This document shows positions 50,541 to 57,365 of a stretch of 64,000 bases of DNA, in pieces. The stretch's first letter is position 1, and every line of letters begins with the position of its first letter. The notes beneath the pieces were generated by a model. The model made no database searches. It was not told where the DNA came from and saw only the letters and a program-made list of their open reading frames with translations. This DNA comes from Frankiaceae bacterium. GTDB taxonomy: Bacteria; Actinomycetota; Actinomycetes; Mycobacteriales; SCTD01. The stretch lies in assembly GCA_016650445.1 (NCBI GenBank), contig JAENVS010000042.1, positions 14,327 to 78,326 of the forward strand. Direction: 5' to 3'. The translations under genes were made by a program, and so were the position numbers.

Positions 50541-52490
50541 CTATCCGGCGGTCAGCTTGAACGGCGGCGGTGTCGTGCCGGTCGGCGGGATCTTCAAGCC
50601 GCGCAGGGCGAACGACATGACGTCCTTGAACACCGGTCCCGCGGTGGACCCGCCGTAGTAGCCGTTGCGACCGGTCCCCTGCAGGACGACCGCGGTCACG
50701 AGCCGCGGTGCGTCCGCCGGCGCGAAGCCGATGAACGAGCTCGTGTAGTTGCCGAGGGCGTACCGGCCGTTGACGACGCGCTGCGCCGTACCCGTCTTAC
50801 CCGCGATCCGGTAGCCGGGGACCGCCGCGAGCGGCGCGGTGCCCTCGGCACTGACAACGGCCTCCAGCATCAGCCGGAGCTGGGCCGCAACCTCCGCCGA
50901 GATGACGCGCCGGGTCTGCGGCTTCGCAGCCGGGACGAGATGCCCGGACGCGTCGGCGACACCCTTGACGACGGTCGGAGCGACCCGGACGCCGCCGTTG
51001 GCAACGGTCGCGTAGACGGACGCCACCTGCATGACGTTGGTCGAGACGCCTTGCCCGATCGGGATGGTGGCGATCGACGTGCCGGACCAGTCCTCCGGCT
51101 TGGGCAGCAGCCCGCGGCTCTCGCCCGGCAGACCCAGACCGGTCTTCTCGCCGTAGCCGAACCGGCGCATCGCGTCGTACAGGCCCTGCGCGCCGACCCG
51201 CTGCGCCACCATCACCGAGCCGGTGTTGGACGACTTGGCCAGTACGCCGGCGAACGTGAGGTTCCAGGTCGGGTGCGGGTGGGAGTCGTGCACGATGTGC
51301 CGGCCGACGCGATAGGTGTCGTTGACGGTGATCGGCGTCTCCGGGGTGACGACGCCCGCTTCGAGAGCCGCCGCCGCGGTGATGATCTTGTTCACCGAGC
51401 CGGGCTCGAAGACGTCGACGATCGCGACGTTCTTCAACGTCTGCGGGGCCGGCTTGGTCGTGCGGTCGTCGGGGTTGAAGGTCGGCGCGGTGGCGAGCGC
51501 GAGGACCTCGCCGGTGCGCACGTCCATCACGACGACGGTGCCGTTGACAGCCTGCGTCTCGGCGACCTTCTTCGTCAGCAGGTCCTGCGCGTACCACTGC
51601 AGGTCGCGGTCGATCGTCAGCTGCACCGCGCGGCCGGGGACCGGCTCCACCGTCGTCGTCGAGCCGGTCGGGATGACGCGACCGGCCTGGTCGACCTCTG
51701 CGGTCGCCTTGCCGTTCTTGCCGGCGAGCACAGCTTGCATACCGGACTCGACGCCGGCCAGGCCACGCCCGTCGCGGTCGGTGAACCCGGTCACGCTGAC
51801 GGCGAGGTCGCCGGCGGGGTGCGTGCGCTGCGTCTCCTGCAGCACGCCGACACCGACGAGGCCGAGCTCGCGGACCTGCCTGCCGACGGTTGCGTCAAGG
51901 CCGCGGGCGAGGTAGACGAACGCGCTCGAGCGGGCGAGCTTGGCCGCGATCTCCGCTGCCGGCAGGCGCAGCACCGGCGCCAGCGCGGCGGCAATGGTCT
52001 GCGGGGTGCACGGCTTGGTCGCGCCGGGCCGGCAGTCCGCCTTGGCGATGATGCGCGGCTCGCCGTAGACCGCGCGGGCATCGACCGACTGCGCCAGCGC
52101 CTGGCCGCTCCGGTCGGTGATCTCCCCTCTCGGCGCAATCAGCGTCGTCGTGCGCAGCCGCTGCGAGGTCGCGTCGGCGGCGTACGCCGTCGCCTGCAGC
52201 CCCTGCAGCCAGACGAGCCGGCCGGCGAGGATCACGAGGATGACCAGGACGAACGCGAACCCGCCGCGCAGCCTCAGCCCGGGCTGACCGAGCGGGGTGG
52301 TCCGCCGGACCGGGCGCCGACCGGCGGGCCGGGGGGTCGGCCGGGTCCTGGTCTGCGTCGCGCTCTTGCGGTCAGGAGCGGCCCGGCGGGCGGACGCGGA
52401 CCTGGACGCGGACGCGGACCTGGAGGCGGAGGCGGAGGCGGCGGCCGGACGCCGCTTCGGCGGGGGCGTCCCGCGGCGCGTCGTGGTCAT
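50541..52490 (-). CDS. ftsI: Class B penicillin-binding protein (division transpeptidase)
   Basis: 649 aa. Ser/Ala/Arg-rich cytoplasmic N-terminus, one TM segment, dimerisation domain, and transpeptidase motifs (SVNK-type serine motif in PGSVNK, SSN in KSSN, KTGT). Confidence 0.9.
   Translation of the reverse strand: MTTTRRGTPPPKRRPAAASASASRSASASRSASARRAAPDRKSATQTRTRPTPRPAGRRPVRRTTPLGQPGLRLRGGFAFVLVILVILAGRLVWLQGLQATAYAADATSQRLRTTTLIAPRGEITDRSGQALAQSVDARAVYGEPRIIAKADCRPGATKPCTPQTIAAALAPVLRLPAAEIAAKLARSSAFVYLARGLDATVGRQVRELGLVGVGVLQETQRTHPAGDLAVSVTGFTDRDGRGLAGVESGMQAVLAGKNGKATAEVDQAGRVIPTGSTTTVEPVPGRAVQLTIDRDLQWYAQDLLTKKVAETQAVNGTVVVMDVRTGEVLALATAPTFNPDDRTTKPAPQTLKNVAIVDVFEPGSVNKIITAAAALEAGVVTPETPITVNDTYRVGRHIVHDSHPHPTWNLTFAGVLAKSSNTGSVMVAQRVGAQGLYDAMRRFGYGEKTGLGLPGESRGLLPKPEDWSGTSIATIPIGQGVSTNVMQVASVYATVANGGVRVAPTVVKGVADASGHLVPAAKPQTRRVISAEVAAQLRLMLEAVVSAEGTAPLAAVPGYRIAGKTGTAQRVVNGRYALGNYTSSFIGFAPADAPRLVTAVVLQGTGRNGYYGGSTAGPVFKDVMSFALRGLKIPPTGTTPPPFKLTAG
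52391..52445. repeat. Short in-frame tandem repeat in the 5' end of ftsI
   Basis: gacgcggacctgga recurs at an 18-bp period (52393 and 52411), followed by ggcgga x3. The region encodes SASASRSASASRSASA. Confidence 0.6.
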
Positions 52491-53005
52491 CGGGGCGTCC
52501 CCGGGACGACGACCCAGGTGCCCTCGGCAGGAGCCGCGGGCTGGGCCTTCTTGGCCGTGGCCGGCTTCGCAGCGGGGGCCGGCTTCGAGGGAACGACGGG
52601 CGGCGGCGCCGCCTGCCCCGGGACGGCTGCACCGATGACCTTGCCGTCCGCGAGCCGCAGGAACGCGGGCGGCCCGCCCGGCACCATCCCGAGCGCGCCG
52701 GCGCGGTTGGCCAGCGATGCCGGGGACTGCAGTCGCTCGACCTCGCGCTGCAGCGCCTGCTCCTGGTCGGCGAGCTGCCGGCCCTGCACCTGGAGCGAGT
52801 GCAGCCGGAAGGCGTCCTGGGCGAGAACCGTGTTGAGCAGCAGCAGGAGCAGCAGACCGACGGCGAGGATGCCGACGACGACCGCGATGAACGGCGCCCG
52901 AGCAGCACTCGACCGCCGGGTGGCGACGAGACGCAGGTAGGCAGCGGACCGCGCAGACGGTCGCGCTGCTGGCCGGGTCAGCGACCGCGCGGTGGCCGCG
53001 CTCAC
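52487..53005 (-). CDS. ftsL: FtsL-like septum formation protein
   Basis: 172 aa. One TM segment ([19 protein letters not shown]) followed by a coiled coil. Sits in the conserved position between rsmH and ftsI and overlaps both. Confidence 0.6.
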
Positions 53006-53961
53006 GCTGCTTCGCGCATTCGCTCAGCGGCGCGCAGGCGCACCGATGCGGCGCGCGGGTTGGTCTCGACCTCGGCCACGGAGGCCTGCTCGGAGCCGCG
53101 CACGAGCAACCGCAGCTCGGGCTCCGAGCCCGCGGGGATGAACGGCAGGTCGATCGGCACGTCGCTGGTCGACCTGGCGACGAGCTCGGCCTTCACGATG
53201 CGGTCCTCGAGGGACTGGTACGACAGCACGACGAGGCGGCCGCCGACGGCGAGCGCATCGATCGCGGCAGGGATCGCGCGTCGCAGGACGCCGAGCTCGT
53301 CGTTGACCTCGATGCGCAGGGCCTGGAAGGTCCGCTTGGCGGGGTGACCGCCGGTCCGCCGCGTCGCGGCCGGGATCGCGCTGCGCACCAGCTCGGCGAG
53401 CCGGGCCGTGCTCGTGAAGGGCTCCTTGTCGCGCTCGCGCACGATCGCGTCGGCGATGCGGCCCGCGAACCGCTCGTCGCCGTACTCCCGCAGGACCCGC
53501 GCGAGGTCCTTGCCGGCGTACGTGTTGACGATGTCGGCGGCGGTGCGGCCGCGCGTCGGGTCCATCCGCATGTCGAGGGGTGCGTCCTGCGCGTAGGCGA
53601 AGCCTCGCTCGGCCTCGTCGAGCTGCAGCGAGCTGACGCCGAGGTCGAACAGCACGCCCTGGACGCGCTCGAGCCGCAGCTCGGCGAGGACCGCGGGCAG
53701 CTCGTCGTACACGGCGTGCACGAAGGTCGTGCGATCGGCGTACGACGACAGGCGGGACGTGCTGCGCCGCAGCGCCTCCGGGTCACGGTCGACACCGACC
53801 AGCCGGGCGGGCGTCGCGGCGAGCAGGGCCTCGGCGTGCCCACCCATGCCGAGCGTGCAGTCGACAACGACGGCATCTGGTCCGGTGAGGGCCGGGGCCA
53901 GCAGACCGACGCACCGGTCGAGCAGCACCGGCACGTGCGCCGGGCGGCCAGGAGAGGTCAT
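53002..53961 (-). CDS. rsmH: 16S rRNA (cytosine1402-N4)-methyltransferase
   Basis: 319 aa. [15 protein letters not shown] and DLGVSS.QLD motifs. Confidence 0.93.
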
Positions 53962-53962
53962 G

Positions 53963-54109
53963 TCAGCCGAGGAGGGTGAGGGTTGCCTGCGCGGCGACGG
54001 TCACGGCGGCGGTGACGGCCATGCAGACCCCGAGGAGGACGAGGCTCTCGCGCACCTCTTCACCGAGGCCGCCGTCGTTCTCCGGGTTGTGCGCTGTCGT
54101 GCTGTCCAT
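53963..54109 (-). CDS. Unlisted 48-codon ORF encoding a putative small membrane peptide
   Basis: Reads [48 protein letters not shown]. It is below the ORF-track cutoff. 44 of 48 third codon positions are G/C versus about half at second positions. GAGAGGG lies upstream of the ATG. The stop (53963-53965) is one base from the rsmH start codon. Confidence 0.45.
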
Positions 54110-54213
54110 CTCGACCCTCTCGGTGGTGCCTCGTGCTGCCTCCCGGGCTCGCGGACCCGGGTTCGGTGTGCGTTGGTTCTTGGGCTGGCAGCTCCCTGTC
54201 GCCAGGTCCCCGC

Positions 54214-54259
54214 CCGCTCCCCGCCTGGCGCCGGGGAAGGTGCGCCAGGAAGGGAGCGG
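54214..54259 (-). promoter_or_regulatory. Long GC-rich hairpin in the mraZ-rsmH spacer (possible mraW-type leader or attenuator)
   Basis: Minus-strand RNA reads CCGCUCCC-UU-CCUGGCGC-[ACCUUCCCCG]-GCGCCAGG-C-GGGGAGCGG, giving 8+8 bp. Two further hairpins follow (CUGGC..GCCAG; CCCGGG..CCCGGG at 54143-54162). Confidence 0.4.
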
Positions 54260-54302
54260 TCGGAGGCCTCGAGACAGGGCACTGGCCCAGGAGCCGCAGC
54301 GG

Positions 54303-54731
54303 TCAGAGCAGGCCGGGCACCCCCTCGTCCTGGTCGGCGAAGGCCTGCTCCTGCTCGGCCTCGTAGGTCGCCCACGCGGCGGCGTCCCAGATCTCGAGCC
54401 GGGTGTTGGCGCCGATGACGACGCAGTCCTTGGTCAGGCCGGCGTACTGGCGCAGCGGCGGTGGGAGCGTGACCCGGCCGGTCTTGTCCGGGATCTCGTC
54501 CGAGGCGCTGCTGAAGAACATCCGGCCGTAGTCGCGGGCGGCCTTGGAGCTCAACGACGCGCTCTGCAGCTCCTCGGCCTTGGCGGCGAAGGCGGCGCGG
54601 GTGAACACGTACAGGCATCGCTCCTGGCCTCGGGTGATCACCACACCTCCCGCCAGCTCGTCCCGGAACTTCGCCGGCAGGAACAGCCGGCCTTTGTCGT
54701 CGAGACGAGGGGTGTGCGTGCCGAGAAACAC
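54303..54731 (-). CDS. mraZ: Transcriptional regulator MraZ
   Basis: 142 aa. Starts [26 protein letters not shown] and has the duplicated SpoVT/AbrB-like DxxGR motif. GTG start with GAAGGAG upstream. Confidence 0.93.
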
Positions 54732-54761
54732 GGCCGCTCCTTCCCCGTTGCTCCGATGTCC

Positions 54762-54792
54762 ACCACGTTACTCCACTTTCCCCCATCGTCAA
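54762..54792 (-). promoter_or_regulatory. Candidate mraZ promoter overlapped by three phased MraZ-type boxes
   Basis: Minus strand reads TTGACG (54787-54792), a 16-nt spacer, then TAACGT (54765-54770). The direct repeats ATGGG, GTGGA and GTGGT are separated by 5-nt spacers; their plus-strand complements sit at 54782-54786, 54772-54776 and 54762-54766. Confidence 0.5.
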
Positions 54793-55066
54793 CGCAACAG
54801 ACCTCCTTAAGTCCCCACGTCTCCTCCCCCTTTTTCGGCGCCGGCGCCGGACACGTCGGGCAAAGCCGGACACAACGGCGTCGTACACCGACGGACGTCC
54901 GGGGAAGGGGGCGCCCCGGCGCCCGCTTCCCCGGACGCAACAGCGGGGGCGGGATCCTTTGCCGAACCGTTGTCGTCTAACGGGTGCCGACATCCCCCGC
55001 GAATGCGAGCATGCTGTGACTGCAGTCAGCCCGGCCACCAGGCCGCCGTCACAGGAGGCCCTCCCG

Positions 55067-56068
<1,002 letters not shown>

Positions 56069-56075
56069 GCCGCGC

Positions 56076-57365
56076 TTGACCGGTGCACTGGCCGCACTGA
56101 GCGGCCTGACGACGCGCGGCAGGTGTCTGCTCGCGGCGGGCATCGCCCTCGTCGCCTGCGCCGTCGCTCTCGGCCAACGCGACCTGCTGCGCGCCGGAGT
56201 GTTCCTCGCGGTGCTGCCCGTCGCTGCCGTCGCCGTCGTGGCGCGGACGCGCTACCGGCTCGCGTGCAGTCGTCGGCTCGAGCCTCCGCGCGTCGAGTCA
56301 GGACGGGTCGCGACGGTGCGGCTGCGGTTGGACAACGTGTCGCGGCTGCCCAGCGGCGTCCTGCTCATGGAGGACACGCTGCCCTACACCCTCGGCGGCC
56401 GGCCGCGGTTCGTGCTCGACAAGATCGAGCCGCGCGGGGTGCGCGACGTCACCTACCCCGTGCGGGCGGACACCCGCGGCCGCTACAGCGTGGGGCCGCT
56501 CGCCGTGCGCCTCACCGACCCCTTCGGGCTGTGCGAGCTGACGCGGTCGTTCGCCACCGTCGACGATCTGATCGTGACGCCGGTCGTGAGCTCGCTTCCG
56601 TCGGTGCGGCTCGGCGGCGACTGGGCCGGTGGCGGCGACTCGACAGCGAGGTCGGTCGCGGCGAGCGGGTCCGATGACGCAGCGACGCGCGAGTACCGCC
56701 ACGGCGACGACCTGCGCAAGGTGCATTGGCGGTCCACGGCGCGCGTCGGCGAGCTCATGGTCCGGCGCGAGGAGCAGCCGTTCCAGAGCCGGGCGACGAT
56801 GCTGCTCGACGGCCGGCTCAACGCGCACCGCGGTGACGGCCCCGGTTCGTCGTATGAGTACGCCGTCAGTGCCGTCGCCAGCATCGCCATCAGCTTGTTG
56901 CGGGCGGGTTTCCTGCTGCGGCTCCTCGGTGAGAACGGCGAGGACATCGGGCCGCCGCACGTGACACTCACCGAGAACGTGTTCCTCGACTCGCTCGCGT
57001 TGGTCGAGACGTCACGCGGGCACTCGCTGGGACCGGCGACGGCACGGCTGCGCAGCGGCACCGACGGGGTGCTGGTCGCGGTGCTCGGCGCGCTCGACGT
57101 CGAGGACGCAGAGCGACTCGCCAGACTGCGCGTCGGCGTCGGCACGTGCATCGCGGTCCTGCTCGACGTCGACAGCTGGGCACCGATCAGCGCGCGTCAG
57201 CGCACGAGCGCGCAGCAGGGAACCGAGCGCATCCGCGCGCTGCTGTCCGGCGCCGGCTGGCGCGTCCTGCCGGTCTCCTACGGCACGACACTCGCGTCGG
57301 TCTGGCCGCTCGCCGGCACCCGCACCCTGTCCGCCGAGGCGCCCGCGAAGCAGGCCCTGGCATGA
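56076..57365 (+). CDS. DUF58 domain protein (MoxR partner)
   Basis: 429 aa from the TTG at 56076, 10 nt after GGAGG. Two N-terminal TM segments. DUF58 signature TREYRHGDDLRKVHWRSTAR. Confidence 0.85.
   Translation: MTGALAALSGLTTRGRCLLAAGIALVACAVALGQRDLLRAGVFLAVLPVAAVAVVARTRYRLACSRRLEPPRVESGRVATVRLRLDNVSRLPSGVLLMEDTLPYTLGGRPRFVLDKIEPRGVRDVTYPVRADTRGRYSVGPLAVRLTDPFGLCELTRSFATVDDLIVTPVVSSLPSVRLGGDWAGGGDSTARSVAASGSDDAATREYRHGDDLRKVHWRSTARVGELMVRREEQPFQSRATMLLDGRLNAHRGDGPGSSYEYAVSAVASIAISLLRAGFLLRLLGENGEDIGPPHVTLTENVFLDSLALVETSRGHSLGPATARLRSGTDGVLVAVLGALDVEDAERLARLRVGVGTCIAVLLDVDSWAPISARQRTSAQQGTERIRALLSGAGWRVLPVSYGTTLASVWPLAGTRTLSAEAPAKQALA

Follow-up and report, generated by a model that had tools for sequence, protein, structure and literature searches.

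The dcw (division and cell wall) cluster is among the most studied and most conserved of all bacterial gene clusters, and the functions served by its 5' end, mraZ-rsmH, are still a puzzle. We consider here a small open reading frame (sORF) of 48 codons that lies between these two genes on the minus strand of a 64,000-nt stretch of contig JAENVS010000042.1, from a Frankiaceae bacterium (this whole stretch is referred to as the window, and all coordinates are positions in it). The gene order is mraZ, a leader with the mraW RNA motif, the sORF, rsmH, an ftsL-like gene and ftsI. It seems likely that the sORF is a genuine and conserved gene for a tiny single-helix membrane protein, that it stands on what was ancestrally the initiation region of rsmH, and that it is translationally coupled to rsmH. 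The genes and signals concerned are these:

53963..54109, minus strand: the sORF, a 48-codon coding sequence plus TGA, characterized by its sequence, its G+C content at the three codon positions (GC1/2/3), a codon score, the ratio of nonsynonymous to synonymous substitution rates (dN/dS), its homologues and an AlphaFold2 prediction
53002..53961, minus strand: rsmH, the downstream gene, for the 16S rRNA m4C1402 methyltransferase (Pfam Methyltransf_5, 3.9e-109)
54303..54731, minus strand: mraZ, the upstream gene of the dcw cluster (Pfam MraZ, 2e-39)
54110..54129, minus strand: putative translation-initiation region of the sORF, GCACCACCGAGAGGGTCGAG, with a Shine-Dalgarno (SD)-like GAGAGGG (54115..54121); invariant in five orthologues, SD duplex -8.8 kcal/mol
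53959..53965, minus strand: candidate coupling junction TGA-c-ATG (sORF stop, one base, rsmH start), read from the sequence, with variants in relatives

The sORF runs from an ATG at 54109..54107 to a TGA at 53965..53963, and a single base (C, at 53962) separates this stop codon from the ATG of rsmH (53961..53959), the two genes being in different frames. The purine-rich GAGAGGG (54121..54115) ends 5 nt upstream of the sORF start. An earlier, sequence-only reading of the window had proposed the 48-residue peptide, its coordinates, its codon bias (44 of 48 codons end in G or C), the GAGAGGG and the one-base junction, all of which were reproduced from the sequence. It had also called the sORF unannotated, which is true of the list of open reading frames on which that reading drew, but not of GenBank, where the identical protein is already present as 'hypothetical protein JJD92_15355 [Frankiaceae bacterium]', from a metagenome-assembled genome (MAG).

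How much can be made of a frame of this size in a genome of 72% G+C, in which open frames this long are unremarkable and dozens of spurious ones are listed in the window? It might be no more than a chance open frame in a high-G+C spacer, with the database gene calls being artefacts and the conservation that of an RNA element. Such a view would suit the abundance in the window of spurious frames of 40-390 codons, the tendency of GC-rich DNA to encode peptides rich in Ala, Val, Leu, Gly and Thr that resemble transmembrane (TM) segments, and the fact that all the annotations are automatic entries of the form 'hypothetical protein'. Because open frames are so cheaply come by, codon usage was scored, with a log-odds table trained on 31 long genes of the window. 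The sORF attained 32.7 bits, which places it at the median of true in-frame 48-codon windows (31.8 +/- 12.5), a true-gene level that is matched by only 0.036% of 5510 off-frame or antisense windows; of the five remaining frames of the segment and the leaders nearby, one antisense frame scored 8.3 bits and all others were negative. The GC1/2/3 values of the sORF (0.73/0.48/0.92; more exactly, GC2 0.479 and GC3 0.917) are like those of rsmH (0.77/0.51/0.93) and mraZ (0.68/0.49/0.94), and also like the profile of ftsI, and such periodicity is absent from the 193-nt leader on the 5' side of the sORF.

Comparison with relatives points the same way. The peptide, used as query against 5.8 billion proteins, retrieved the identical protein and seven homologues with 70-77% identity, six of the seven being exactly 48 residues long; the DNA of four of them was inspected, and in each case the gene lies between mraZ and rsmH, with a stop codon that overlaps the rsmH start by 1 nt or precedes it by 1-2 nt. 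Selection was assessed by pooled Nei-Gojobori estimates on five distinct orthologues in the window sequence's group (71-77% amino-acid identity). All five sORFs are 147 nt long, with no indels at all, beside an upstream leader that carries indels of lengths not divisible by three. Variable columns are distributed 17/9/28 over the three codon positions (p = 0.006), and for the sense frame the pooled dN/dS is as low as 0.30, the other five frames giving 0.6-3.4. The proportion of synonymous differences (0.36) matches that of rsmH (0.33-0.43), and at this same level of synonymous saturation codons 17-48 give a dN/dS of 0.24 (for comparison, rsmH gives 0.10-0.14 and mraZ 0.11-0.24). In wider relatives, length variation is limited to the N-terminal tail and stays in frame, and lineages too diverged for nucleotide alignment still have the same frame and C-terminal motif. 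With a low dN/dS confined to the sense frame, an excess of third-position substitutions and no indels, the sORF is a protein-coding sequence under purifying selection. A chance frame overlying a conserved RNA, which would account neither for these features nor for a frame and motif that outlast nucleotide alignability, appears effectively refuted by the comparative data, and we give it next to no credence. Two antisense frames on the plus strand (53729..54418 and 53976..54980) were also considered and rejected as genes, having dN/dS values of 0.6-3.2 and an atypical GC1 lower than GC2.

The wider distribution of the sORF was surveyed in 80 rsmH loci from GTDB representative genomes (the L numbers used below are our designations for loci). 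A frame with a TM tail ending at the rsmH start was present in 13 of them (L001-L003, L006-L009, L024, L028, L033, L034, L044 and L071), all from Nocardioides or uncultured Actinomycetota, and among the 80 loci none was found in Streptomyces, Nocardia, Rhodococcus, Mycobacterium, Gordonia, Kribbella, Amycolatopsis, Arthrobacter and others. Two types of protein can be distinguished. In the window type, a variable tail of 13 to >40 residues with much Pro, Thr and Asp leads into a core of 33 residues that hardly varies, GLGAE[LV]RESL[LV]LLG[FVLC][AS].[GA]VT[VA][GA][LV]T[TV][AV]AQAAL..L[GAS]-stop; this type, whose members match at E 1e-12 to 1e-23, accounts for at least 265 clusters at 90% identity, which carry the labels Frankiaceae, Frankiales, Mycobacteriales or Actinomycetota. 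The Nocardioides type, MS.TP...RRVRHQAR[DE]A..[LV]MAFSA..S...LLLL..LGR-stop, figures in the records of many cultured Nocardioides species as a hypothetical protein, examples being NODU109028_21385 of N. dubius and WP entries of N. dongkuii, N. koreensis and N. litoris, which occupy the same mraZ-rsmH position and are of similar size (44-60 residues). A mixed profile of both types (alignment A1) found at least 1226 clusters; the matches listed are almost all of the Nocardioides type, and we rejected the idea of crediting this count to the window type, since a hidden Markov model (HMM) of the Nocardioides type misses the window peptide, and so a separate count was made for the window type. When 1.84 billion representative proteins were scanned exhaustively with HMMER, 324 clusters at 50% identity were obtained, 63 of them at E <= 1e-10; nearly all members of the set have 34-120 residues, and the longer ones are mis-started calls or come from frameshifted assemblies.

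Are the two types related to each other? Both have an M[SD][ST]T start, a variable linker, a juxtamembrane R-[DE]-[AS] motif and a C-terminal TM segment that ends in ..LG(R), and in both the sORF start has the same GGGTCGAR context. They differ in their cores (RRVRHQAR[DE]A..[LV]MAFSA..S, with a basic N-side, in the Nocardioides type; GLGAE[LV]RESLLLLG..VT..T.AAQAAL, with an acidic N-side, in the window type), and pairwise identity between them is only 13-27%. Comparison of the sub-alignments of the two types by hhalign nevertheless gave a probability of 94.8% (E 5.4e-8) over 49 columns, end to end, with a score of 37.5 against 14.0 +/- 2.8 (maximum 24.3) in 200 block-wise column shuffles that preserved the compositions of the N-part and the TM-part separately, none of which reached the real value. 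Because of this link, together with identical synteny and a shared initiation motif, the two types are treated here as one putative family.

Synteny in the order mraZ-sORF-rsmH was found in 11 of the 12 contexts fetched. The apparent exception (L092:1131-3700) was set aside as a frameshifted assembly in which only a fragment of rsmH is found, about 700 nt downstream; likewise a 420-residue protein, P0231, was rejected as a natural fusion of sORF and RsmH because its assembly is riddled with frameshifts. Both probably derive from error-prone long reads, and caution is needed when fusions or absences are counted in this family. As we define the family (no curated definition exists), its members lie on the same strand as mraZ and rsmH and between them, with a stop codon abutting the rsmH start; they have 44-65 residues, a variable N-tail, a juxtamembrane R-[ED]-[SA] and a C-terminal TM helix that ends the protein (alignments A1-A4, in which R20 and L47 are nearly invariant), and they show significant similarity to other members. 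The window sORF has all of these properties. Its product matched no Pfam family at E <= 1 (the CrgA family included) and no protein in a PDB sequence profile search at E <= 1, NCBIfam gave nothing meaningful for 20 family members, and the precomputed Pfam field is empty for all listed homologues. The sORF is thus a member of a sizeable, uncurated family of small membrane proteins encoded at the head of the dcw operon. In kind it is familiar (a small TM protein, and a gene in a coupled operon). New, as far as the literature that we searched goes (in full text, mostly from outside subscription journals), are the family and its location; no account was found there of any gene that Actinomycetota carry between mraZ and rsmH. 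The sequence-only reading had likewise known of no such gene, a statement borne out by that literature and by the lack of a model in Pfam and NCBIfam; it had taken the frame for a small membrane-peptide gene, the coding status of which is now strongly supported by the codon signature, purifying selection, indel pattern and large syntenic family, and had named loss of the frame with retention of nucleotide structure as the outcome that would speak against a gene, which is the opposite of what the orthologues show.

What might the presence of this gene mean for rsmH? Taking both types together, most of 21 loci have RGGGTCGAR ahead of the sORF, at a distance of 0-5 nt from its ATG. The core GGGTCGAG-ATG occurs also at the start of rsmH itself in lineages without the sORF, namely Kribbella (gaagggtcgagATGgac), Nocardia (gggaggtcgagGTG) and Acidothermaceae, and rsmH of Streptomyces has a related GAGAGGG context (ctgagagggccccTTG); the sORF-less rsmH starts with shared context are those at L029:~2465-2485, L053, L032, L038 and L012/L023. 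This suggests that the sORF was either inserted after, or in other lineages deleted from behind, an ancestral ribosome-binding site of rsmH, so that it would now occupy the initiation region, GGGTCGAG-ATG, that serves rsmH directly where the sORF is lacking.

The strengths of the SD sequences are in keeping with such a displacement. In the window, rsmH has an SD duplex of -1.7 kcal/mol, against -8.8 for the sORF, and no SD for rsmH is found within the 3' end of the sORF. Over 22 sORF loci, duplexes with the anti-SD sequence average -8.4 kcal/mol at the sORF start and -3.6 at that of rsmH (paired p = 7e-5), with rsmH values of -2.2 to +1.2 kcal/mol in the window-type orthologues, L001, L002 and L091, whereas the rsmH genes of 62 sORF-less loci average -9.9 kcal/mol (Mann-Whitney p = 1.4e-7). 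Between the sORF stop and the rsmH start, the 22 loci show anything from a 1-nt overlap (TGATG) to a gap of 16 nt; in the window clade the junctions are TGAcATG, TGAcGTG, TGAccATG and TGATG, and adjacency is always kept. Further downstream on the same strand, rsmH and the ftsL-like gene overlap by 4 nt (GTGA, 53002..53005), as do the ftsL-like gene and ftsI (ATGA, 52487..52490), so that the sORF, rsmH, the ftsL-like gene (its 172-residue product has no Pfam match) and ftsI form a chain joined throughout by coupling-type junctions. A stop codon near to or overlapping the next start, and a weak SD in front of that start, are what is expected of termination-reinitiation, and since rsmH combines a weak SD with so close a junction, it is probably translated by ribosomes that reinitiate after completing the sORF. 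Synthesis of RsmH would then depend on ribosomes terminating on the sORF, and the coupling would run on through the two 4-nt overlaps into the ftsL-like gene and ftsI. In the closeness of stop and start, the SD-less downstream gene, and a geometry that is kept despite sequence change, the pair resembles coupled gene pairs in general (with ATGA or TGATG junctions); it differs in that the upstream partner seems to have captured the ancestral ribosome-binding site of its downstream neighbour, and coupling is here deduced from sequence.

The shared start context might also be read in another way, in which a frameshift once split off the sORF, either from a longer N-terminus of RsmH or from a second copy of the rsmH 5' end, and what is left is now decaying and has no function of its own. 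Not only does the sORF use the ancestral SD/ATG context of rsmH, but the N-termini of the two proteins bear a weak resemblance (AHNPE against AHVPV in the window), rsmH is extended at its N-terminal end by 20-29 codons in some actinobacteria, and Mumia keeps only a 12-codon frame after the same motif. We nevertheless regard decay as very improbable, because the frame is intact and its core is strongly conserved in hundreds of diverged lineages and in two subfamilies, because the junction varies (1-nt overlap, 1- or 2-nt gap) without the frames ever being fused, and because the sole 'fusion', P0231, is the faulty assembly discussed above. An origin from the rsmH 5' end could explain how the sORF arose, while fitting poorly with a decaying remnant. 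The resemblance itself lies, on the minus strand, between ..TAHNPE.. of the sORF (54080..54109; GCGCACAACCCGG) and ..PAHVPV.. of rsmH (53925..53961; GCGCACGTGCCGG), and a similar likeness is seen within the genome of Nocardioides abyssi (L006), between MSTTHVTS and MSQPRHVPV; speculatively, the 5' end of the sORF could have come from a duplicated rsmH 5' end, or the likeness could be due to chance. The Mumia frame (MVVGRPGGRTHE, following GGGGTCGAG-ATG just 5' of rsmH in M. xiangluensis, L078:~2455-2493) may be a remnant of the sORF in a Nocardioidaceae genome that lacks the full gene.

The 5' side of the sORF is occupied by a long leader with two structured elements, the first of them a known motif that the sequence-only reading of the mraZ-rsmH spacer had overlooked:

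54184..54285, minus strand: mraW RNA motif (Rfam RF01746), a long hairpin that scores 65.1 bits (Rfam gathering score 50; E 2.7e-13)
54142..54161, minus strand: a small G+C hairpin, CCCGGGTCCGCGAGCCCGGG, composed of CCCGGG-TCCGCGAG-CCCGGG, conserved in five orthologues with indels in its flanks

The mraW RNA match ends 74 nt 5' of the sORF ATG, so that the sORF lies outside it with no overlap, and the small hairpin stands between this match and the SD of the sORF (in L083 its stem is shortened to CCGG..CCGG). In the five orthologous leaders the layout is the mraW hairpin, about 100% conserved, then a linker with indels not divisible by three, then the small hairpin, then the invariant GCACCACCGAGAGGGTCGAG-ATG; a fold of the whole leader shows the mraW hairpin clearly, and gave no convincing structure joining the sORF to the rsmH start. 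Of the loci scanned, the seven from the window clade and its near relatives (L001, L002, L081 and L083-L085 among them) all score above gathering for RF01746, and scores below it were obtained in L003 and in every sORF locus of the Nocardioides type (L006-L009, L024, L028, L033, L034, L044 and L071), where either the motif has diverged or been lost, or the model is biased; among sORF loci the motif reaches gathering only in those of the window type. In Corynebacterium glutamicum the motif has been seen by RNA-seq in the 5' untranslated region of mraW (PMC3890552). The motif, a candidate cis-regulatory leader of actinobacterial mraW/rsmH, thus shares the spacer with the sORF while being an RNA hairpin and not a reading frame, and the first gene 3' of it is here the sORF rather than rsmH. 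A sigma-70 scan of the spacer gave no match on the coding strand, the model being uninformative for promoters of high-G+C actinobacteria.

A short frame that follows the mraW RNA within a long, structured 5' leader invites the thought that it might be purely regulatory: an upstream open reading frame (uORF) or leader peptide for which only the act of translation matters, whether for delivery of ribosomes or for remodelling of the leader, the peptide itself being degraded. The tight stop/start junction with an SD-less rsmH is in harmony with this, as are the nearly free N-terminal third (with its lengths of 13 to >40 residues) and the fact that lineages such as Kribbella and Streptomyces, without the sORF, translate rsmH from the same initiation region. 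On the other hand, the 33-residue C-terminal core is near-invariant over at least 265 clusters, including E18, R20, E21, S22, Q41 and a periodicity of small residues; codons 17-48 have the dN/dS of 0.24 given above at a synonymous saturation equal to that of rsmH; and delivery of ribosomes needs neither a specific sequence nor 48 codons. Nor was any terminator-like site, or alternative of terminator and antiterminator, found on the coding strand between 53900 and 55000. The usual marks of an attenuating leader peptide or uORF are accordingly lacking, there being no terminator, conserved hairpins that lie upstream of the frame, and a selected peptide core; a role in ribosome delivery would be compatible with all of this. 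We consider a purely regulatory frame improbable, and prefer a translated sORF whose product matters. The sequence-only reading had offered coupling to rsmH or a regulatory uORF as alternatives: the first has gained support from the stop-start geometry across the 22 loci and from the shift of the SD from rsmH to the sORF, and the second, in its pure form, is weakened by conservation of the peptide.

What kind of protein is specified? Modelled by AlphaFold2 with the family alignment, residues 1-14 (variable among relatives) are disordered and residues 15-47 form one helix, with a predicted local distance difference test score of >90 for residues 21-48. The helix begins with the juxtamembrane GLGEEVRES, which includes a conserved E-[VL]-R-E-S collar, and continues into the TM segment, along which small residues form a stripe at every fourth position (G27/A31/A35/A39; G-xxx-G-xxx-G in most relatives) accompanied by an invariant Gln, Q41. 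A face of small residues forming a zipper, and a Gln within the membrane, are marks of helices that pack tightly on another TM helix, and the sORF helix would be predicted to pack either against its own copies or against a partner. Its C-terminal ~25 residues would span the membrane and end the protein, resembling a tail-anchored protein; because such a segment leaves the ribosome only at termination, insertion is presumably post-translational. The topology is probably N-in/C-out, since the Nocardioides type has a strongly basic collar. It is a speculative and rather doubtful possibility that the membrane partner is a component of the divisome or of septal peptidoglycan synthesis. More tentative still is a fuller proposal, in which the peptide would be a lineage-specific component or regulator of the actinobacterial divisome or of septal wall synthesis, or else a membrane partner of RsmH or MraZ, its zipper helix and Gln docking on a TM helix of FtsL, FtsQ, FtsW or FtsI and its expression being stoichiometrically tied to that of the proximal dcw operon; the grounds for a cell-wall or divisome role are the genomic association and the helix-packing features only. 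Analogies may be drawn with Blr of Escherichia coli, SidA and DidA of Caulobacter and CrgA of actinobacteria, which are alike in their tiny size and single TM helix (CrgA has two), the sORF sharing their link to cell-division genes by association only. None shows sequence similarity to the sORF product (homology being checked through Pfam only), and we know of none whose gene lies between mraZ and rsmH.

Several considerations tell against the picture of a conserved, coupled gene for a membrane protein, or at least moderate it. The dN/dS of the sORF (0.30) is two to three times that of rsmH (0.10-0.14), a moderate constraint, with the N-terminal third nearly free to vary. Members of the window type all come from metagenomes or MAGs, and the gene is known here from sequence alone. 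Homology of the two types rests on the profile-profile comparison plus synteny, and the Nocardioides-only HMM gave scores of just 2.5-4.8 bits, not significant, when run on the window peptide and on every piece of the window's six-frame translation. The SD comparisons ignore the phylogenetic relatedness of the loci, and Actinobacteria initiate efficiently without an SD at many genes, so that a weak SD at rsmH is no proof of dependence on the sORF. As to topology, the N-tail of the window type is acidic (net charge about -5), and the positive-inside rule alone leaves the orientation unfixed.

If the gene is as we propose, an additional gene stands at mraZ-rsmH in two large groups of actinobacteria (Nocardioides and uncultured Frankia-like soil lineages), and the first of these groups, being cultivable, offers a test case for the function of small proteins in cell division. 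The locus would also be a natural experiment in which a new reading frame has been inserted between a gene and its initiation region, making coupling obligate, and in these lineages the mraW RNA would be better read as the leader of an sORF-rsmH pair. The family definition given here, missing from Pfam and NCBIfam, may help annotators to avoid overlooking the gene or extending it wrongly.

Finally, we draw attention to the region upstream of mraZ. A block at 54758..54794 (minus strand), CGTTGACGATGGGGGAAAGTGGAGTAACGTGGTGGAC, is almost invariant (two base changes) even in L001 and L091, where the sequence around it has diverged; within it, a -35-like TTGACG precedes three TGGGG/GTGG repeats, about 10 nt apart, which we take to resemble the MraZ operator repeats described for other bacteria. 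Divergent from mraZ, on the plus strand, are genes for a MoxR-type AAA+ ATPase (54959..56068; AAA_3, 9.7e-64) and a DUF58 protein (55677..57365), and this arrangement of MoxR/DUF58 and mraZ is kept in every well-assembled related locus that was fetched, from Nocardioides to the Frankia-like MAGs.

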